NCBI GenBank assembly: GCA_038328755.1
Contig: JBBQMH010000002.1
Span: forward strand, 12,175 to 76,174
DNA: 64,000 bases
DNA from: Candidatus Limnocylindrales bacterium
GTDB taxonomy: Bacteria; Chloroflexota; Limnocylindria; Limnocylindrales; CSP1-4
Direction: 5' to 3'
The position numbers and the translations under genes are program-made. Positions 15,382 to 35,622 of the stretch are shown here, piece after piece. Position 1 is the first letter of the stretch, and the number at the start of each line of letters is the position of its first letter. The notes beneath the pieces are model-generated. The model worked only from the letters and a program-made list of their open reading frames with translations, was not told where the DNA came from and did not search any database.

Positions 15382-16164
15382 ATGACCGCATCACGCGCCT
15401 TCGGCCGCTCGATCCGACGGCCCCATCATTTCTTCGCGACGGGGATCGCTGGCGCGGTCGTCCTGCTCATGGCGGCCGCTGGCGCCTCGGCCGCGACCTA
15501 CACCGTTCAGGCCGGGAACTACGAGTTCGTCGCGCCCGGCGGAGGGTCATCGATCACGATAGCCGTGGGTGACAAGATCACGTGGGTGGCAAGCGGAGAC
15601 CCGCACACCGTCACCAGCGGTGCGCCCGGTTCGATCAACAACCGGTTCCTCGATCACCCCGCATCGGTCGGTTTTCTCATCAGCGGGGACACGTTCACCG
15701 CGACGTTCTCGTCGAGCGGGACCTTCCCGTACTTCTGCGAGGTTCACCCCGAGCAGATGTCCGGCGTCGTCAAGGTCGTGCCCGCCGGGTCGACCACTCC
15801 CGCTCCGACCGTCAGGGCCACTCCACGACCGACGCCCCGGCCGTCGAAGCCACCAACGCCCGTGCCGACCGCGACCGCGCCGGCGCTACCCGGGCCGTCG
15901 CCGAGCCCAACCGAGGCTCCATCTGCCAAGCCCCAGCCAAGCGCGTCCCTGACTGCACCCGGCCCATCGGTGCCGCAAGGATCCACGACCCCATCGGGCC
16001 CGGATGGCTCGCCGGCGTCTGGCTCGCCGGCGTTGAGGCCGACGCCCGCCGCCGAGGCGGCCGAAGACAGCACGGGTCCGGGCATCATCATCGTCGGGCT
16101 CCTGGCGGGTGCCCTCGCGGTTGCCCTCATGATTCGATCCCGGCGAGGCGCCGGCATCCGCTGA
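15382..16164 (+). CDS. plastocyanin/pseudoazurin-like blue copper protein with a C-terminal membrane anchor
   Basis: N-terminal RR-containing signal (SIRRPHHFFATGIAGAVVLLMAAAGASA). Cupredoxin ligands GDPHTV ... YFCEVHPEQM. Long Pro/Ser/Thr linker, a TM helix (IIIVGLLAGALAVALMI) and RSRR. Confidence 0.8.
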   Translation: MTASRAFGRSIRRPHHFFATGIAGAVVLLMAAAGASAATYTVQAGNYEFVAPGGGSSITIAVGDKITWVASGDPHTVTSGAPGSINNRFLDHPASVGFLISGDTFTATFSSSGTFPYFCEVHPEQMSGVVKVVPAGSTTPAPTVRATPRPTPRPSKPPTPVPTATAPALPGPSPSPTEAPSAKPQPSASLTAPGPSVPQGSTTPSGPDGSPASGSPALRPTPAAEAAEDSTGPGIIIVGLLAGALAVALMIRSRRGAGIR

Positions 16165-21832: not shown

Positions 21833-22866
21833 GCGGCGGACTCCACGGCGTCCGTGCGCTCTGCCGATCGGTCGCCCGTCAGCTCGAGATAGCGTTCCTC
21901 GAGGGTAGCGGCGGCGGCTCGAAGCTCGTGGATCTGGATCGAGGTGGCTGCGCACCAGGCGGCCACCGCCGCGATCAGCGGCGGATCCGGAGGCGCTCCG
22001 TCGATCACCAGCGAGCCGGGCGATCGTCCCGGGTCGGCCATCGCAATCGATCCGGGTACGGACGCGGACACCGCCGCGCCGAGTGACGACAGCTCGCCGG
22101 CGTCGAGCCCACGATCCAGGCGGATTCGAAGACGCGGTAGCGCGCCGGCGGCGAGGTCGGAGGGCGACCCATCGGCGACGATGTGACCGCCATGCAGGAT
22201 CAGGACGCGGTCCGCCAGTCGCTCGACGTCGCCCAGGTCGTGGGTCGTCAGCAGGATGGTCCGGCCCTCGGCATGCAGGCCGGCGATGAGATCACGCGTC
22301 GTCCGTCGGGCCTCCGGGTCCATCCCGGCAGTTGGTTCGTCGAGGACCAGGATCTCCGGGTCGCCAACCAGCGCGAGCGCCAGGGCCAGGCGCTGACGCT
22401 CTCCACCCGACAACCGTCGGGCCCGCGTACCCGCGACCGCGTCCAGTCCGACCAGCCTGAGGAGCCCATCCACTCCGGCCGGATGAGCGGGCTCGTGGAA
22501 TGCCGCGTACAGGCGCAGGGCCTCCCGCGGCGTGGTCCGCGGGTCGAGGCCCCCGCCCTGGAGCATCAGTCCGACACGCGACCGGAGAGCCGGACCGCCG
22601 AGTCGCGGGTCCATGCCCAGCACGCGAACGTCCCCGTCATCGGGGGCTCGATAGCCCTCGAGGATCTCGACTGCGGTGGTCTTCCCGGCGCCGTTGGGGC
22701 CGAGCAGGGCCACGACCTCTCCGTGGGCGATCTCGATGCTGATCGCGTCGAGGACGGTCCGGCCTCCATAGCGCTTGGTCACGCCATGGAGCGCGAGAGC
22801 CGGCGCGCTCGATGGGTCGAGCGCGAGAGCCGGCGCGCTCGATGGGTCCGAGCCCCCGACGGTCAC
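21829..22866 (-). CDS. ABC transporter ATP-binding protein (DrrA/NatA-like) with a C-terminal extension
   Basis: Walker A GPNGAGKTT, signature LSGGERQRL, Walker B ILVLDEPTAGMD, H-loop LLTTHD. The GTG start overlaps the upstream thioredoxin-like stop (GTGA). Confidence 0.9.
   Translation of the reverse strand: MTVGGSDPSSAPALALDPSSAPALALHGVTKRYGGRTVLDAISIEIAHGEVVALLGPNGAGKTTAVEILEGYRAPDDGDVRVLGMDPRLGGPALRSRVGLMLQGGGLDPRTTPREALRLYAAFHEPAHPAGVDGLLRLVGLDAVAGTRARRLSGGERQRLALALALVGDPEILVLDEPTAGMDPEARRTTRDLIAGLHAEGRTILLTTHDLGDVERLADRVLILHGGHIVADGSPSDLAAGALPRLRIRLDRGLDAGELSSLGAAVSASVPGSIAMADPGRSPGSLVIDGAPPDPPLIAAVAAWCAATSIQIHELRAAAATLEERYLELTGDRSAERTDAVESAA
22789..22848. repeat. perfect 30-bp tandem duplication inside the 5' end of the ABC ATPase gene
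   Basis: GAGCGCGAGAGCCGGCGCGCTCGATGGGTC occurs twice in direct succession (22789-22818 and 22819-22848). This gives an in-frame duplicated decapeptide, DPSSAPALAL x2. Confidence 0.9.
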
Positions 22867-23417
22867 GGACTGGTGGCCGCGGGTCCGGTGATCAGGGCGT
22901 AGAAGCGGTCGAACTCCGGGGCCGTCAGCTCGCCCACCTGGATGCCCCGTAATACCCCGTCACGGTCGATGAAGTAGGTCTGGGGCCGGGCAACGGCACG
23001 GTACGCGGCCCGGATCGCCCCGTCGGGGTCATCGACGGTTGGCCAGGTCGCCCCCTGGTCGCGGATGAAGTCCTGGGCAGGGGCGGGCGGATCGAACATG
23101 AGGACGCCCACGAGCGCCAGCCCTTCGGCGGCGTGCGCCGCGGTCCTGTCGATGAACAGCGCGAACTCGTCGCGGCAGGGAACGCACGAGGGTCCCCAGA
23201 AATTGACGATGACCGGGCGTCCGCGATACGAGGCGAGGGTGAGGGGCTGGCCGTCGAGGGTCGTTCCCTGGAATGCCGGGGCTGGCTGCCCGATGGAGAT
23301 GCCCGACGGCGCCGCCGGCCCGCCACCCGGCGCGATGGTACTGAGCGCGATCAGGACGACCGTCGTGAGCAGGGCCAGGACAACCGCGACGATGACGGGG
23401 CGCCGCCGAGGATCGAT
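22863..23417 (-). CDS. membrane-anchored TlpA/ResA-like thiol:disulfide oxidoreductase (5' end uncertain, no canonical start codon)
   Basis: The frame is open from the stop at 23451-23453. It reads DPRRRPVIVAVVLALLTTVVLIALS (TM anchor) ... GRPVIVNFWGPSCVPCRDEF (thioredoxin CxxC) ... QTYFIDRDGVLR. The only ATG/GTG/TTG codon in frame is GTG 23111, which lies downstream of the CxxC. I provisionally place the start at ATC 23417. Confidence 0.65.
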   Translation of the reverse strand: MDPRRRPVIVAVVLALLTTVVLIALSTIAPGGGPAAPSGISIGQPAPAFQGTTLDGQPLTLASYRGRPVIVNFWGPSCVPCRDEFALFIDRTAAHAAEGLALVGVLMFDPPAPAQDFIRDQGATWPTVDDPDGAIRAAYRAVARPQTYFIDRDGVLRGIQVGELTAPEFDRFYALITGPAATSP

Positions 23418-23439
23418 GTGTGAACCCGTGACCGGCCCC

Positions 23440-24513
23440 TTACTTGACTGTCAGCGTCCCGGTCATCTGCGGGATTGGATGGATCGAGCAGATGAAGACA
23501 TACGTACCCGGCGCGAGACCCTTGTACGAATAGGTGGTGGAGTCGCCACCATTGATCACGGCCTGGTTCTCGACCTCGGTGGTCTTGTCGGCAGCTCGAA
23601 TCGCGATGTCATGGGTGACGCCCGGCGGATCGGCATTCGTGAAGTCGATGGTGAAGGGCGTATTCGCCGGCACGGTCAGGCTGGTGATGTCATAGGCGAT
23701 GTCCTTGGCCGTGATCTTGAACGCGGTGCCAGGCGCTTCAGCCGCCCCGGATGGCGCGGGGCTTCCCGCCACGCCGTCGGCGGCCGTGTCGCTACTGCCC
23801 TTGGGCGGGATGATCCCGGCCTGGGCGAGGACAGCCAGCACGAACAGCGCAGAACCGACCTGGAGCAGGCGTCGCGGCCAGCGTGGTGGCGGGCCGTTCT
23901 CAAGATGACCGGTCTCGTCGGCCTGGACCGCCTGCGCATATTCGGTCTTGGCGTCAGGCAACCAGCCGAGCAGGGTCGTGATGAAGATGATCAGGCCCGC
24001 CGCGAGGAGCCAGCCGCCGAATACCAGGCCCGCCATCAAAGCGGCGGTCCCGAGGGCGCCGAGGACCGGTCTGAACGACGGACCCGGCATGTGAACACCC
24101 GGCGGGGGCCCGGCATGGACGACAGCCGGCAGGGTCTGGGCGTTCGTCGCGTGATCGAAATCACGAATGGCCTCGCGGCCCCAGTAGAGCAGCGTGAGGG
24201 CGAGAACGACCAGTCCGATGACGACCGCATCGCCACCCACGATGAGCCCCCACATCTGGGCTGCAAGCCCAACCGCCAGGAAGACGGGGGCGTACGTCGG
24301 ACCGGGCATGTGGACGTCCGGCGGCGTCACCGGCGTCAGACGAGCCGGTGCGCGCCGCTTCGGTCCCGCGGTGGCGAACCGACGCGCGGTGAGGAGGAAG
24401 AACAGCACCACGAGGGCAAGGAGCGCCACCGGAATGAGCTTGATCAGCTCGCCCCAGTCGGGCGTCACCACCTGCGCGAGCAGGTCCAGGATCGACTGCC
24501 AGAGCTCCTGCAT
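23440..24513 (-). CDS. polytopic membrane protein: duplicated CtaF (subunit IV) C-half-like modules fused to a C-terminal cupredoxin domain
   Basis: Six predicted TM helices. A module is repeated twice (VHMPGPTYAPV + 2 TM; VHMPGPSFRPV + 2 TM). It resembles, from memory, the PHSWWP loop and TM3-4 of actinobacterial CtaF. Ser/Ala/Pro linker, then a blue-copper domain (GVTHD ... FICSIHPIPQMTGTLTVK). Confidence 0.7.
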   Translation of the reverse strand: MQELWQSILDLLAQVVTPDWGELIKLIPVALLALVVLFFLLTARRFATAGPKRRAPARLTPVTPPDVHMPGPTYAPVFLAVGLAAQMWGLIVGGDAVVIGLVVLALTLLYWGREAIRDFDHATNAQTLPAVVHAGPPPGVHMPGPSFRPVLGALGTAALMAGLVFGGWLLAAGLIIFITTLLGWLPDAKTEYAQAVQADETGHLENGPPPRWPRRLLQVGSALFVLAVLAQAGIIPPKGSSDTAADGVAGSPAPSGAAEAPGTAFKITAKDIAYDITSLTVPANTPFTIDFTNADPPGVTHDIAIRAADKTTEVENQAVINGGDSTTYSYKGLAPGTYVFICSIHPIPQMTGTLTVK

Positions 24514-24529
24514 CGAGTGCCGGTCGCCC

Positions 24530-24724
24530 TCAGTCCTCGGTCGAGCCGGCGATCAGGACGTAGAACATCATCGCCGATGCCACGCCGAGAGCAGCCAGCA
24601 TCGTCACTCCCGCCCACTCGATGTGGTAACCAAGGGGAACGGCGCCGAGCGCGTAGAGCGCCCCGGTTGTGATGAAGGCGAGCGCGACGATCGCGACGTT
24701 CCTCGGATGGCGGAGTGCATGCAT
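24530..24724 (-). CDS. small two-TM protein resembling the N-terminal half of actinobacterial cytochrome oxidase subunit IV (CtaF)
   Basis: 64 aa; ATG preceded by GGGGGAGGG. The sequence IVALAFITTGALYAL..HIEWAGVTMLAALGVASAMMFYVL recalls the VEWAGTTALALTGG region of mycobacterial CtaF (from memory). It sits between ctaE and the CtaF-like fusion gene. Confidence 0.5.
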   Translation of the reverse strand: MHALRHPRNVAIVALAFITTGALYALGAVPLGYHIEWAGVTMLAALGVASAMMFYVLIAGSTED

Positions 24725-24739: not shown

Positions 24740-25387
24740 CTACAGGAAGTACAGGATCGAGAAGAGAATGATCCAGACGACATCGACGAAGTGCCAGTAC
24801 AGGGATGCGGCCTCGACCGCGTCGTGGTGGCGGGATGAGAACTGGCCGGACATGCCGCGGTAGAGAACGACACCAAGCATGATCACGCCACCGAAGACGT
24901 GCGCGCCATGGAAGCCGGTGAGCGTGAAGTAGGTCGTCCCGAACGGGCCGGATCCCATCGTCAGGCCTTCATGGAACAGGAGGCTGTAGTCGTACGCCTG
25001 CAACAGCAGGAAGGTGATCCCGAGGATGAAGGTGACGGCCATGTTGCGAAGGAAGCCGCGTCGGTCATCCCGGCGGATCGCCCAGATCGCCATCTGCAGC
25101 GTCACCGAACTCACGATCAGGATGACGGTGGCGACGAGGATCAGCGAGAACGGATTGAGGATGCTGGCGAATTCCTGGGGCGGCCACTCCTTGACGCCGT
25201 TGACATCGACGAAGTTGGCCCGCGTACTGAAGTAGGCAGCGAACAAGCCGGCGAAGAACATCACCTCCGAAGTGATGAACAGGATCATCCCGAGGATCGG
25301 GTTGCTGATCCCACCACGGACATCGTGGGCCAGGCTCGCCATCGGGCTGTGCTCAATGGGCGTCAGGGCGTGGGTATCGGCGGTCAC
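24740..25387 (-). CDS. ctaE: cytochrome c oxidase subunit III
   Basis: GTG 25387 after GAGGGAG. NPILGMILFITSEVMFFAGLFAAYF, TGFHGAHVFGGVIML and YWHFVDVVWI are typical of COX3. The longer 25621 ORF start would overlap ctaD. Confidence 0.9.
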   Translation of the reverse strand: MTADTHALTPIEHSPMASLAHDVRGGISNPILGMILFITSEVMFFAGLFAAYFSTRANFVDVNGVKEWPPQEFASILNPFSLILVATVILIVSSVTLQMAIWAIRRDDRRGFLRNMAVTFILGITFLLLQAYDYSLLFHEGLTMGSGPFGTTYFTLTGFHGAHVFGGVIMLGVVLYRGMSGQFSSRHHDAVEAASLYWHFVDVVWIILFSILYFL

Positions 25388-25403: not shown

Positions 25404-27035
25404 TCAGTGTCCCGACCGCCCGTGGCGGGCATCGAAGACCGGCCGCTCCGAGCGGATCTCGGGCAGGTGATCGAAGTTGTACGGCGGTGGCGGTGACGAC
25501 GTGGCCCACTCGAGCGTGTTGCCCTCCCATGGGTCGTCGCCGGCGATCTTGCCGTTCCGGAGCGAGATGAAGACGTTCCAGATGAACGGCAGGATGGAGG
25601 CGGCGATGGTGAAACCACCAACGGTGGCGAGCAGGTTCAGGTCGTTCCAGCCCGCATCAGATGCGTAGTCGGCGATCCGTCGGGGCATGCCCTCGAGCCC
25701 CAGCTGGTGCATCGGGAAGAAGGTCAGGTTGAAGCCGATGAACATGAGGACGAAGTGGAGCTTGCCGAGGCCCTCGTCCAGCATCCGTCCGGTCATCTTG
25801 GGGAACCAGTAGTACAGGCCGGCGAAGATCCCGAAAACGGATCCACCGAAGAGGACGTAGTGGATGTGAGCGACCACCCAGTACGTGTCATGCAAGGCGA
25901 AGTCCACCGGGACCGAAGCGCTGAAGGCGCCGTTGATGCCGCCGATCAGGAACATCGTCAGGAAACCGATCGCGAAGACCAGCGGCGTGGAGAGCGACAG
26001 CTGTCCGCGGAACATCGTGAATACCCAGTTGAACATCTTCACGCCCGTAGGAACGGCGATGAGGAAGGTCAGCAGGCTGAAGAACGGCAGGAAGACCGAG
26101 CCCGTGGTGAACATGTGATGGGCCCAGACCGAGAAGCCAAGAGCGCCGATGGCGGCCGTGGCGAAGATGAACGCCTTGTAGCCGAACAGCGGCTTGCGGC
26201 TGAAGACCGGCAGGACCTCGCTGATCACGCCCATCGCGGGCAGGATCATCACGTAGACGGCCGGGTGCGAATAGAACCAGAAGATATTCTGGTACAGGAT
26301 CGCGCTGCCCCCGCCGAACGGATCGAAGAAATGGCCACCGTAGTTGCGGTCGATGAACAGCATCACCAGTGCACTGGTGATGACAGGCGTCGCCATGACC
26401 ACGAGGACGCTCGTCACGAGCACGGTCCAGACCATGATCGGCATCCGGAAGAGGGTCATGCCCGGCGCACGCATCTTGAAGATCGTGACCAGGAAGTTGA
26501 TGCCGCCGAGGATCGAGCTGGTCCCGATCAGGATGAGCGACACGATCCACAGATCCTGCCCCGAGCCCGGGGACTTCAGCGGGCCGTCCAGCGACAGCGG
26601 CGGGTAGGACGTCCAGCCGGCCGCGGCCGTGCCGCCAGTGAAGAAACTCGAGATCAGCAGAAGTCCGCCCAGGGGCAGCATCCAGAGCGACAGGGCGTTG
26701 ATGCGCGGGAAGGCCATGTCCGGGGCGCCGATCATGAGCGGGACGATGTAGTTGCCGAGACCCGCCAGCATCGGGATCACGAACACGAAGATCATGATCG
26801 TGGCGTGCATCGTGAACATCTCGTTGTAGACGTGCTCGTCGGCCAGGAACTGCAGGCCCGGCTGGGCCAGTTCGGTCCGAACGACCAGGGCGAGGATGCC
26901 GCCGATCAGGAAGAACACGAACGAGTTGATGACGTACATGATCCCGATCTTCTTGTGATCGGTGGTCGTCAGCCACTCGTACAGGCGACCTCGACTGTAG
27001 GTCGAGGTCGCCGGGGTGAGGGCGTGGGTCGCCAT
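25404..27035 (-). CDS. ctaD: cytochrome c oxidase subunit I (A-family, A2-type motif)
   Basis: 543 aa; ATG after AAGGAG. Canonical COX1 helices and ligands (HATIMIFVFVIP, WFYSHPAVYVMILP, WAHHMFT, HDTYWVVAHIHYVLFGG). Helix VI has YSHPAV in place of GHPEVY. Confidence 0.97.
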   Translation of the reverse strand: MATHALTPATSTYSRGRLYEWLTTTDHKKIGIMYVINSFVFFLIGGILALVVRTELAQPGLQFLADEHVYNEMFTMHATIMIFVFVIPMLAGLGNYIVPLMIGAPDMAFPRINALSLWMLPLGGLLLISSFFTGGTAAAGWTSYPPLSLDGPLKSPGSGQDLWIVSLILIGTSSILGGINFLVTIFKMRAPGMTLFRMPIMVWTVLVTSVLVVMATPVITSALVMLFIDRNYGGHFFDPFGGGSAILYQNIFWFYSHPAVYVMILPAMGVISEVLPVFSRKPLFGYKAFIFATAAIGALGFSVWAHHMFTTGSVFLPFFSLLTFLIAVPTGVKMFNWVFTMFRGQLSLSTPLVFAIGFLTMFLIGGINGAFSASVPVDFALHDTYWVVAHIHYVLFGGSVFGIFAGLYYWFPKMTGRMLDEGLGKLHFVLMFIGFNLTFFPMHQLGLEGMPRRIADYASDAGWNDLNLLATVGGFTIAASILPFIWNVFISLRNGKIAGDDPWEGNTLEWATSSPPPPYNFDHLPEIRSERPVFDARHGRSGH

Positions 27036-27045
27036 TCCGCGCTCC

Positions 27046-28152
27046 TTACTTAACCGTCAGGGTGCCGGTCATGTTTGCGTGGATCGAGCAGAAGAACGTG
27101 TACGTCCCCGCCGGCAACGGGTCGTAGACGTAATTCGCGCTGCTGCCGCCGTTGACGACTTCCTGATTCGCGACAACCGTGCCGCTGGAGTCGCGGACGT
27201 CGACGTCATGCGTCACCCCGGATGGATCCTGGTTGGTGAAGCTGATCGCGAACGGCGCATCTGCGGGTACCTCGAGGGCGGCCGTGTCGTACTGGATATT
27301 GAGTGCGCTCAGGGTGAGGACCGTGCCGCTCGGTGCCGGCGCGGGCGTCGCGTTGGCCTTCACGATCAGGGCCTTGAGCCAGGTGTCGTAGTCGGCCGGC
27401 GTCAGGGCGATGACCGAGAAGAGCATCCGGCGGTGGCCGGTCCCGCACAACTCGGCACACTGGCCCCGGAAGACCTGGCCGGCTTCGGATGCATCGACCG
27501 TGAATTCGAATCGGTTGGTCTGGCCCGGCACCACATCGCGCTTGAACAGGAAGCGCGGGACATAGAACGCGTGGATCACATCCGGGCTGTCCAGGGTGAC
27601 CTGGACCGACTTTCCGGCCGGGACGGCCATCCCACCCTCGCCCGTGTCGACGTCATAGACGGGAACCAGCTGCGTCGCGACTTTCGACCCGCTGGCATCG
27701 AGATACTCGAACTGCCATTGGAACTGCCCGGCAATCGCATGGATCCGGATATCCGGAGAGGCGCTGACCGCGTTGACGCGGTTCAGGCTCTGCCAGGAGA
27801 TCACGAACAGGAAGAGCACGATCGCGGTCGGGATGAGCGTCCAGATGATCTCGACCGTGTTGTTCCCGTGAGTCTGGACCGGGAGTGACGTGTCGCTCGA
27901 CTTGCGCCTGTAGCGCAGGACGCTCCAGATGATCAGTGCCTCGACGACGACGAAGATCGCCAGGCCAAACGCGAAGACGATGTCGTACAGACCCCGGACG
28001 TTGCGTGCTTCCGATGTGGCGGCTTGCGGCGGATAGAGGGAGGCTCCCCAGCCGCTCAGGAACACGGCGCCCACGAGCGCGACCAGGATTGCGACCACCA
28101 AGCCGGCGACGAGCGCGTCGGGCGCGGGCCGCTTCCTGGGGCTAGTCGACAT
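27046..28152 (-). CDS. ctaC: cytochrome c oxidase subunit II fused to a C-terminal cupredoxin (type-1 copper) domain
   Basis: ATG 28152 after GAGGA. Two TM helices, CuA domain (DVIHAFYVP, CAELCGTGHRRM), Ala/Pro linker, then a roughly 95-aa domain with GVTHD ... FFCSIHANMTGTLTVK (His/Cys/His/Met spacing as in amicyanin). The 28605 ORF start adds a non-protein-like Arg/Ser leader. Confidence 0.9.
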   Translation of the reverse strand: MSTSPRKRPAPDALVAGLVVAILVALVGAVFLSGWGASLYPPQAATSEARNVRGLYDIVFAFGLAIFVVVEALIIWSVLRYRRKSSDTSLPVQTHGNNTVEIIWTLIPTAIVLFLFVISWQSLNRVNAVSASPDIRIHAIAGQFQWQFEYLDASGSKVATQLVPVYDVDTGEGGMAVPAGKSVQVTLDSPDVIHAFYVPRFLFKRDVVPGQTNRFEFTVDASEAGQVFRGQCAELCGTGHRRMLFSVIALTPADYDTWLKALIVKANATPAPAPSGTVLTLSALNIQYDTAALEVPADAPFAISFTNQDPSGVTHDVDVRDSSGTVVANQEVVNGGSSANYVYDPLPAGTYTFFCSIHANMTGTLTVK

Positions 28153-28288: not shown

Positions 28289-29371
28289 ATGCGCCGGGAC
28301 GCACCGTGGGACGATAGGCTCGTGAACAGGCGCAGCATCGTTCGCGGGCTCGTGGCGCTGGCCAGCGCCGTCGTCGCCGGAGCGATCGCCGTCCCTTTGG
28401 CGGCAGCCCACGGACCCGTTCCGGATGCGCGCCCCGACGCAGTCAATCTGCTGCTCGACTGGGAAGTCGAGCCGCTGGTGGCGCTGCCCCTGCTCATCTC
28501 CGCTGTCGTGTGGTGGCGTCTCCTGGCGAGGGTCGATCGGCTCCACCCCGACCATCCCGTTCCCGCCTGGCAACGCTGGGCGTTCATCGCCGGCCTCGCT
28601 GCCATCGCCTTCGCCCTGCTGTCCGGCGTGGCCCGCTACGACACGACCCTGTTCTCGCTGCACATGGTCCAGCACCTGCTGCTGACCCTGGTCGGTCCGC
28701 CGCTCATGGCCATGGGTGCGCCCATCACGCAATTGCTGCGGGCGGTCTCATCATCGACTCGAAGGCAGCGGATTCTGCCGGTTCTGCACAGTCGCGTCGT
28801 GCTGGGGCTGACGCATCCGATCGTCGCCTGGCTGGTCTTCACGGCCGTCATGTGGGGCACCCACTTTTCGCCCCTCTTTGACCTCTCCCTGGAAGATCCC
28901 GTGGTCCACGATCTCGAGCACATGGCCTTCCTGGCGGCCGGGCTTCTGTTCTGGTGGCCGCTCGTCGCCCTGGACCCGGCACCAAACCGGATGCGGCATC
29001 CCGCCCGGATCGCCTACGTCTTCCTGCAGATGCCCCAGAACTCCTTCCTGGCGGTGGCGATTCTGTTTGCCGAGAGCCCGCTCTATCCGCACTACGCGAC
29101 GCTCGGATCGCCCTACGGAATCCTGGCCCTCGACGATCAGCGCCTGGCCGCCGGGATCATGTGGTTCTTCGGCGACGTGATCTTCCTCGTGGCGACGCTG
29201 GCAGTCATGGCCACCTGGATGAGCAGTGAATCTCGATCCACCGAGGCAGCCGACCGACGCACGGACCTCGAGCGGGCAGCCCTGCGCGAGCGGGAGGAGG
29301 TGTTACGGAAGCGACGCGCCGACGTGGCGCCCGATCAGGCTGGCACCGGGGCGTCGATCAGCGAGCGGTAG
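28289..29371 (+). CDS. ctaG: cytochrome c oxidase assembly protein (Caa3_CtaG family)
   Basis: Polytopic membrane protein with LHMVQHLLLTLVGPPLMAMGAP, HDLEHMAFLAAGLLFWWP and DQRLAAGIMWFFGD, typical of Bacillus/actinobacterial CtaG. Divergent from ctaC. Start uncertain (ATG 28289 or GTG 28322). Confidence 0.8.
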   Translation: MRRDAPWDDRLVNRRSIVRGLVALASAVVAGAIAVPLAAAHGPVPDARPDAVNLLLDWEVEPLVALPLLISAVVWWRLLARVDRLHPDHPVPAWQRWAFIAGLAAIAFALLSGVARYDTTLFSLHMVQHLLLTLVGPPLMAMGAPITQLLRAVSSSTRRQRILPVLHSRVVLGLTHPIVAWLVFTAVMWGTHFSPLFDLSLEDPVVHDLEHMAFLAAGLLFWWPLVALDPAPNRMRHPARIAYVFLQMPQNSFLAVAILFAESPLYPHYATLGSPYGILALDDQRLAAGIMWFFGDVIFLVATLAVMATWMSSESRSTEAADRRTDLERAALREREEVLRKRRADVAPDQAGTGASISER

Positions 29372-35085: not shown

Positions 35086-35622
35086 GTGCACGCACCACCG
35101 ACGTTTCGACGCGCCGCGCGCTATGTCCTCGCGACTTTCCTTGCGCTGGCCGTCCTCGGGTGCTCAGCGGATCCGGACTCCACGCCGGCGATCACCGCCG
35201 GCACCGCCGATCAGCCACGGACCGTGATCATCGTGGCCAAGGACTACTCGTACATTCCACCGATCGTGGATCTGGTCCCGGGCGAGCACGTCGTGCTCCA
35301 GATCGTCAACGGGGGGCTCATCGTTCACGAGATCGTGATCGGCGGGATGGGCGTGCAGGACGCCTGGGAGGCGGCCGAGGCGGCAACGATCGGGGCTCCG
35401 CCGGGCCCGACACCCGTGGTCTCAGTCAGCCCGGATCTGGCGGGGCTGCGAGTGGTGGTCCAGACCGGCCAGCGGGTCGATGTGCCATGGACCGTCCCTC
35501 TGACCGCGGGCACGGAGGCCGGCGGCTGGTTCGTTGGCTGCCACATCCCCGGCCACTGGGCGGAAGGGATGGTTGTTCCGGTCCGATTCGTCGGTCGCGA
35601 CGGGCAGCCGCTGAAAACGTAG
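35086..35622 (+). CDS. azurin/auracyanin-like cupredoxin lipoprotein
   Basis: GTG 35086. RR-containing signal with a lipobox ([20 protein letters not shown]). Cupredoxin ligands LIVHEIV ... [12 protein letters not shown]. Confidence 0.65.

Follow-up and report, generated by a model that had tools for sequence, protein, structure and literature searches.

The aa3-type cytochrome c oxidase operon in the 64,000-nucleotide stretch of Limnocylindrales DNA analyzed here (the window; contig C2 of a 2.38-Mb metagenome-assembled genome, or MAG, that is 84% complete) continues beyond ctaE into two genes, both on the minus strand. These encode a 64-amino-acid (aa) protein with two transmembrane (TM) helices (s64; 24530..24724) and a 357-aa protein with six helices and a predicted C-terminal type-1 copper domain (p357; 23440..24513). 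p357 contains a tandem repeat of a helical hairpin that corresponds to the first two helices (TM1-2) of canonical oxidase subunit III. We favor, with moderate confidence, the reading that s64 and p357 are accessory subunits of the oxidase, in which a hairpin would complete subunit III and tether a blue-copper relay domain near CuA. The association of the subunits, the binding of copper and the path of electrons are what we infer from the architecture, homologies, conservation, gene linkage and predicted topology described below.

A preliminary description of the locus had proposed that the gene for CtaF (oxidase subunit IV) is split and internally duplicated here, with a cupredoxin on the larger piece. 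The two genes that it placed after ctaE were confirmed in position, lie on the minus strand and are conserved among relatives, and most of its structural claims stood; its account of the split did so only in part.

The repeated hairpin and the copper domain of p357

Gene p357 is supported by its open reading frame (ORF), Pfam matches, orthologues and an AlphaFold2 (AF2) model, and five segments can be distinguished in its product, all encoded on the minus strand. Residues 1 to 42 (24388..24513) comprise an N-terminal amphipathic helix, predicted to face outward and containing the invariant residues P18, W20 and P28, followed by TM1; they were delimited by alignments and by AF2 helices at residues 2-16 and 20-48. 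Hairpin copy 1 (residues 58-120; 24154..24342) consists of a VHMPGPTYAP loop and TM2-TM3, and copy 2 (residues 130-192; 23938..24126) consists of a VHMPGPSFRP loop and TM4-TM5 with a W-x2-D-x3-E end; both were defined by repeat statistics and by matches to PF12270 and COX3 profiles. TM6 (residues 217-235 by hydropathy; AF2 helix, 214-231) leads into a flexible linker rich in Ser, Ala and Pro (residues 236-258), which together occupy 23740..23865. The remainder (residues 259-357; 23443..23739) is an auracyanin-like type-1 copper domain, with predicted ligands H301, C342, H345 and M350, identified through Pfam, PDB and Foldseek.

The internal repeat is far beyond chance. When family subalignments of residues 58-120 and 130-192 were compared with hhalign, they matched with a probability of 99.5% and an E value of 2.3e-22, with 43% identity over 60 columns, so that the module is indeed present twice, as had been noted from its loops. 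Its invariant His and its PxS..P and W..D...E motifs are maintained across relatives at 30-53% identity, and the hairpin loops of distant members read VHLPGPSPWPF.

Two comparisons bear on the identity of this module. The first is with actinobacterial CtaF, to which it had been likened. p357 scores 30.5 bits against PF12270 (Cyt_c_ox_IV), above the gathering cutoff of 26.9, in two stretches, the better of which aligns residues 141-185 with profile positions 80-123 and thus with the C-half of the model only. A six-frame search with the same profile matched both hairpin copies, the copy 1 region (residues 20-120) aligning with positions 37-122, i.e., CtaF TM2-TM4, at 19.7 bits, and most close relatives of p357 carry a precomputed PF12270 match.

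The second comparison is with subunit III. A hairpin profile built from close relatives only (A2) matched COX3 sequences at E values of 0.05 to 0.8 and none of CtaF. A profile rebuilt from diverse relatives (A5) matched residues 8-65 of Rhodobacter sphaeroides COX3 (1m56_C) at 1.7e-8, fourteen further COX3 sequences at 3.6e-7 to 7.9e-6, mammalian COX3 at about 1e-7 to 1e-6, residues 544-599 of Thermus subunit I+III at 1.2e-4, the C-terminal helices of Bacillus subtilis QoxB (residues 579-622) at 3.6e-4 and residues 88-127 of mycobacterial CtaF at 0.022. The COX3 alignments are in register at the HxxxPSxWP loop motif, through the two helices and at the W-x2-D-x3-E end. The likeness to CtaF therefore stands with the PF12270 match, but on these alignments the TM1-2 hairpin of canonical subunit III is the better description of the module. 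The profile matches agree with the structural literature on Mycobacterium smegmatis, in which CtaE and CtaF together form the canonical subunit III and the equivalents of TM1-2 are contributed by CtaF, at the III-IV interface (PMC8361435).

The other components of the oxidase fit this division. CtaE of the window (24740..25342, minus strand; Pfam COX3; NCBIfam aa3_CtaE_Actin, E 1e-46) is a five-helix subunit III lacking TM1-2 and matches only positions 78-255 of the 258-position COX3 profile (TM3-7). Subunit III is thus not a single seven-helix chain in this operon: TM3-7 are found in CtaE and the hairpins in p357. A search of the whole genome with the hairpin profile recovered the two p357 copies and nothing else, and the twelve-helix subunit I, CtaD (543 aa; 25404..27035, minus strand; Pfam and NCBIfam), has no C-terminal hairpin extension. 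In other Chloroflexota the hairpin ends CtaD frames of 614-698 aa, sits in frames of 74-145 aa or belongs to a full-length COX3, and the tandem form is restricted, in this comparison, to the family of the window and its sister family.

Several lines of evidence support the assignment of the p357 C terminus as an outward-facing, type-1 copper cupredoxin, as had been predicted. First, Pfam gives 46 bits for Cupredoxin_1 over residues 259-356 and 21.2 bits for Copper-bind. Second, H301, C342, H345 and M350 show no variation among the relatives aligned (27 close and 23 diverse), and their spacing fits the type-1 His/Cys/His/Met set, C-x2-H-x(2-4)-M. Third, the top PDB sequence match of the domain is auracyanin B (1ov8; E 6.4e-9), and the top Foldseek matches of p357 are the auracyanins 6kol (E 4e-9; target-normalized TM-score, 0.65) and 1qhq, with 2aan also among them. 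When the whole AF2 model was submitted to Foldseek, only cupredoxins were matched, and the helical part had no match in the top 50. The model itself has a mean predicted local distance difference test score (pLDDT) of 78.7, with residues 238-259 below 50, as for a disordered linker, and the β-sandwich of the copper domain above 90.

Hydropathy and AF2 give the same six helices. The loops ahead of TM2, TM4 and TM6 together contain 12 Lys and Arg residues, while the N terminus and both hairpin turns contain 0; residues 1-42 lack both amino acids, and 6 occur in the loop immediately after. By the positive-inside rule, the 12-to-0 division places the N terminus and the cupredoxin on the outside (P side), in agreement with the earlier prediction, and this orientation matches that known for the hairpins of COX3 and CtaF.

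Conservation of the two genes and their operon

The spacers in this part of the operon are short. A 15-nucleotide (nt) spacer containing GGGGGAGGG separates the ctaE stop codon from the s64 ATG, and a 16-nt spacer separates the s64 stop codon from the p357 ATG. At all 21 loci examined, s64 keeps its position, a length of 61-66 aa, its sequence and an invariant core, GY.(I/V)EWAGVTML, and tblastn located it between ctaE and p357 at 73 of the 80 species loci (the best Limnocylindrales loci). On its ORF and conservation, s64 is a real gene, encoding a candidate equivalent of the N-half of CtaF (TM1, EWAG loop and TM2). A CtaE-s64 read-through product, considered as a pseudo-multimer for modeling, was rejected: a linker of 5 residues cannot join an outer to an inner terminus, and p357 lies in another frame.

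The preliminary description had suggested that neighborhood conservation be checked, and the neighborhood is strongly conserved. The order ctaG (opposite strand), ctaC, ctaD, ctaE, s64 where present, p357, TlpA and ABC transporter genes occurs at all 80 best species loci of the family, and the order ctaD-ctaE-s64-p357-TlpA occurs at 20 of 20 genus loci. An assembly artefact as the source of the arrangement was rejected, as 80 independent species loci agree. Full-length orthologues of p357 are present in 39 of 41 relatives; the protein is encoded in 512 species genomes, and a search of 1.84 billion representative proteins returned 76 clusters at an E value of ≤1e-30. Full-length diverse members, at 33-53% identity, keep the sequence of N-terminal helix, hairpin, hairpin, helix and cupredoxin. 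Named homologues all belong to the Chloroflexota, mostly labeled Limnocylindrales or Limnocylindria, and their database names are generic (“cupredoxin domain-containing protein” or “plastocyanin”). Five MAGs (L052, L059, L066, L067 and L075) labeled Sulfomarinibacteraceae, Eisenbacteria, Patescibacteria, Deferrimicrobiaceae and Dormiibacterota share the operon at 49-62% identity; these are probably misbinned or mislabeled Limnocylindrales contigs.

Upstream of ctaD lies ctaC (27046..28152, minus strand; Pfam and NCBIfam), which encodes subunit II with its CuA domain and, at about 27052-27345, a C-terminal cupredoxin that spans residues 421-518 of the long ORF and shares 56% identity with that of p357. 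The operon is flanked by a divergent ctaG, encoding a Caa3_CtaG assembly factor (28289..29371, plus strand; Pfam E 5.5e-71), whose position is conserved. Directly 3′ of p357 is a gene for a TlpA/ResA-like thiol-disulfide oxidoreductase (22863..23453, minus strand; Pfam and NCBIfam), conserved downstream of p357 in both families and followed by genes for an ABC ATPase and permease. The TlpA-like frame is open from just past the p357 stop codon, with its first canonical start, GTG at 23111, found only beyond the N-terminal half. Relatives keep the frame in full, with tblastn coverage of residues 1-195.

Candidate roles and the proposed path of electrons

How might these proteins function? By analogy with CtaF in actinobacteria, at least one hairpin of p357 would dock beside CtaE and CtaD and complete subunit III. 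TM6 would then take the chain to the outer face, where the linker of about 25 residues would keep the auracyanin-like domain within reach of CuA. The copper domain may receive electrons from the Rieske/cytochrome b complex through a cupredoxin-tipped cytochrome c and may hand them on to CuA, with or without the CtaC cupredoxin as an intermediate, so that tethered copper centers would replace a diffusible cytochrome c.

The content of the genome is consistent with such a path. Contig C17 carries a Rieske/cytochrome b operon (C17:18507-23108), in which cytochrome b is split into N and C parts, with a gene (C17:20583-21641) for a 352-aa membrane-anchored monoheme cytochrome c (CARCH) that itself ends in a type-1 cupredoxin, 46% identical to that of p357. 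No class-I cytochrome c domain other than the one in this fusion protein scored above threshold in the genome, and a full-length fusion is encoded by 37 of 41 relatives and by all 11 of the high-quality genomes. The cupredoxins of p357, CtaC and the C17 cytochrome c are 44-56% identical, and the five paralogous cupredoxin domains share the same ligands. The claim that CtaC also carries a cupredoxin, giving two tethered type-1 centers, was borne out by Pfam, and the suggestion that copper serves in place of cytochrome c gains support from a sole cytochrome c domain that is fused to a third paralogous cupredoxin. Electrons therefore probably reach the oxidase via tethered copper rather than free cytochrome c. 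In the C17 operon, the cytochrome c gene is followed by one for a 485-aa Kelch-like membrane protein.

The cupredoxin of CtaC is less constant than that of p357. Its ligand motif is present in 60 of 67 CtaC orthologues, and the domain is clearly absent from 4 (L086, L090, L092 and L102), in which CtaC ends in a short tail of Pro, Thr and Ala and the p357 gene is kept; the copper domain of p357 is therefore the constant one. At three further loci (L096, L100 and L109), the ctaC ORF is broken or misframed, and several genes appear as split tblastn matches, probably through assembly frameshifts.

A number of observations weigh against the proposed role. The first concern s64. Its profile finds as top match, among 177,635 PDB sequences, residues 11-50 of Mycobacterium tuberculosis CtaF (8hcr_H), with EWAG in register but at a marginal E value of 0.054. 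Against the CtaF-cupredoxin of the sister family described below, it reaches an hhalign probability of only 16%, TM2 to TM2 only, and a Pfam scan of s64 and 19 orthologues returned only noise. The resemblance to the N-half of CtaF that had been claimed for s64 thus holds in the registered motif but is not matched by Pfam, and homology is likely but not established.

The main evidence against a purely structural role in completing subunit III is the arrangement in the sister family, whose genomes are 1.0-1.4 Mb and whose ctaC lacks a cupredoxin. There, ctaE is followed directly by a gene for a 280-284-aa protein (L024:5472-6314; L025:4956-5810) composed of an unsplit four-helix CtaF, a fifth helix and a cupredoxin; its residues 7-127 match positions 11-126 of PF12270, nearly the whole model, at 24.4 bits. 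The same genomes also encode a full 361-aa p357 orthologue with both hairpins, located between ctaG and a TlpA-like gene. That gene has no adjacent s64, lies 5 kb from the cytochrome c-cupredoxin gene and is away from ctaCDE. Since the oxidase operon of the sister family has its own CtaF-cupredoxin, completion of subunit III cannot require every p357 hairpin, and it leaves the role of the second hairpin unexplained.

The remaining points concern the relay. With the genome only 84% complete, a soluble cytochrome c may have escaped detection, and the relay need not be direct, as other anchored cupredoxins of the window could be mobile carriers. Finally, the sequencing runs that hold this sequence are DNA metagenomes only, with zero RNA runs.

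The sister family also bears on the origin of p357. As it has both an unsplit CtaF-cupredoxin and a full p357 orthologue, p357 is a distinct, order-wide paralogue and is more than the C-half of a split gene, and the clean splitting of one CtaF gene was rejected. The products of s64 and p357 also have overlapping likenesses to CtaF, because the first 120 residues of p357 already align with CtaF TM2-TM4. The CtaF-helix-cupredoxin after ctaE does indicate that a CtaF-type subunit tethering a cupredoxin to the oxidase is a recurring design.

Further features of the sister family and of its cupredoxins were observed. With an unsplit CtaF fusion and a CtaC without cupredoxin in that family, the position of the second copper domain linked to the oxidase shifts from CtaC to CtaF, or the reverse, from one lineage to another. 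Divergent from and upstream of the sister-family ctaC is a gene for a 418-433-aa anchored protein with three tandem EfeO-like cupredoxin repeats (HEFLVV...CNI.GHYK.GM; L025:431-1687 and L024:946-2247). Cupredoxin domains are more alike within a lineage than are orthologous domains across lineages: in the sister family, those of p357 and the cytochrome c-cupredoxin are 54% identical, and p357 domains are only 42% identical across both families. Such a pattern points to gene conversion, recurrent transfer of domains or co-adaptation.

A more elaborate version of the proposed role would give the second hairpin a function, and we regard it as possible but rather unlikely. p357 might act as a bridge, with one hairpin in the oxidase beside CtaE and the other in the Rieske/cytochrome b complex or a second oxidase monomer, within an obligate supercomplex of complexes III and IV. 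Its copper would sit between the cupredoxin of the complex III cytochrome c and either CuA or the CtaC cupredoxin, and electrons would move from heme c through two or three copper centers to CuA in an all-tethered copper relay, with no diffusible carrier.

A doubtful alternative, to which we give similar weight, is that p357 acts on its own as a membrane-anchored electron carrier, comparable to auracyanin but polytopic, which would shuttle between a bc-type complex and partners such as the oxidase and would not belong stably to the latter. Its hairpins would then be only an anchor derived from a CtaF-like ancestor. The location of the sister-family gene outside a ctaCDE operon that has its own CtaF-cupredoxin would suit such a carrier, as would the retention of p357 where CtaC has no cupredoxin and the best matches of the copper domain, which are to auracyanins, themselves mobile carriers. 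Six helices with two strongly conserved hairpins of the subunit III type nevertheless exceed what a tether needs, the hairpin belongs to the oxidase core in every characterized context, and p357 lies within the oxidase operon at 80 of 80 best species loci.

It is much less probable that p357 is a biogenesis factor that handles copper with CtaG and the TlpA-like thioredoxin and metallates CuA or the fused cupredoxins. The constant position of the TlpA-like gene after p357 would be in keeping with this, as would the sister-family gene, which sits between ctaG and TlpA, away from the structural genes. The ligands, however, form the canonical, tight-binding type-1 His/Cys/His/Met set and are invariant, and the fusion partners of the paralogous domains, CtaC and cytochrome c, are bona fide redox subunits. 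A Pfam scan of p357 and the sister-family orthologue, at E values up to 1, found no match to copper chaperone families (PCuAC and Sco). Lastly, although short transmembrane segments often yield spurious similarity and s64 has no Pfam match, a chance hydrophobic resemblance to CtaF and COX3, with a chance repeat and an s64 ORF that is not a gene, is refuted by the repeat (E 2e-22), the in-register COX3 match (E 1.7e-8) and the conservation of s64, with its Shine-Dalgarno sequence, at 21 of 21 loci.

The genome and the window contain other oxidase and cupredoxin genes. A second ctaCDE oxidase (C23:21317-24985), with a CtaD 49% identical to that of the window, has neither a hairpin gene nor a cupredoxin on CtaC. 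The CtaD of this second oxidase, at 622 aa, is extended at the N terminus by about 90 aa that appear to include two extra helices, and the operon is preceded by a gene for a 145-aa EfeO-type cupredoxin-like protein (HEFVVV...CNLLAHYGKGM). Two more anchored cupredoxins are encoded on the plus strand of the window, a plastocyanin-like protein with a C-terminal helix anchor (15382-16164) and a lipoprotein (about 35086-35622).

Comparison with known systems and significance

Like CtaF in the bcc-aa3 supercomplexes of M. smegmatis, M. tuberculosis and Corynebacterium glutamicum, s64 and p357 are encoded with a five-helix CtaE. The p357 module of a loop and two helices resembles the C-half of CtaF, and the EWAG loop motif of s64 resembles its N-half. 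Unlike CtaF, which is a single four-helix chain of about 130-140 aa with no extra domain, the helices are divided here between s64 (64 aa; 2 helices) and p357 (357 aa; 6 helices), the latter with a tandem hairpin, one helix added at each end and a predicted type-1 copper domain on the outer face. The hairpin also aligns in register with canonical COX3, Thermus caa3 subunit I+III and B. subtilis QoxB, and the C-terminal helices of Escherichia coli CyoB are a further known case of subunit III fission or fusion. Our comparison with the literature and the PDB found no solved or described tandem copies of the COX3 hairpin, nor a hairpin joined to a redox domain.

Auracyanins are membrane-tethered blue-copper carriers to terminal acceptors, held by lipid or a single helix, and their partner is alternative complex III. 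The p357 domain shares the His/Cys/His/Met type-1 ligands of auracyanins A and B from Chloroflexus and Roseiflexus, members of the same phylum, but it forms the C terminus of a six-helix, oxidase-type subunit, and its expected partner is a Rieske/cytochrome b complex. As in caa3 oxidases, with cytochrome c on subunit II, and in the actinobacterial diheme QcrC, the carrier would be tethered to complex III or IV rather than diffusible. In contrast to the heme c of those proteins, the tethered domains here are copper domains, borne by CtaC, a CtaF-like subunit and the cytochrome c of complex III. Sulfocyanin (SoxE), of the Sulfolobus SoxM supercomplex, is an anchored cupredoxin encoded and associated with a heme-copper oxidase. 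AcoP of Acidithiobacillus ferrooxidans is described in similar terms, as an anchored cupredoxin encoded and associated with an oxidase of this class (PMC4059628, PMC10804444). Unlike p357, both have a single-helix anchor and no subunit III or CtaF module, and they come from unrelated lineages.

Tethered carriers (caa3, QcrC, AcoP and sulfocyanin) are thus already known, as are cases in which the subunit III hairpin has undergone fission or fusion, while the literature on Limnocylindria, cupredoxins, oxidases, auracyanins and fusions yielded no description of p357 or of the three-cupredoxin arrangement. The tandem duplication, anchoring a redox domain, is a new state for this mobile hairpin, known previously in subunit III, at the C terminus of subunit I and in CtaF. 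The annotation of a large protein family, hitherto generic, can also be corrected. Three paralogous cupredoxins at defined positions provide testable predictions on the ordering of their potentials and on supercomplex architecture. Limnocylindria, uncultured aerobes, are abundant in soils, sediments and lakes, and the arrangement proposed here would give them an aerobic chain wired almost entirely with tethered copper, a low-heme, copper-dependent route from quinol to oxygen.

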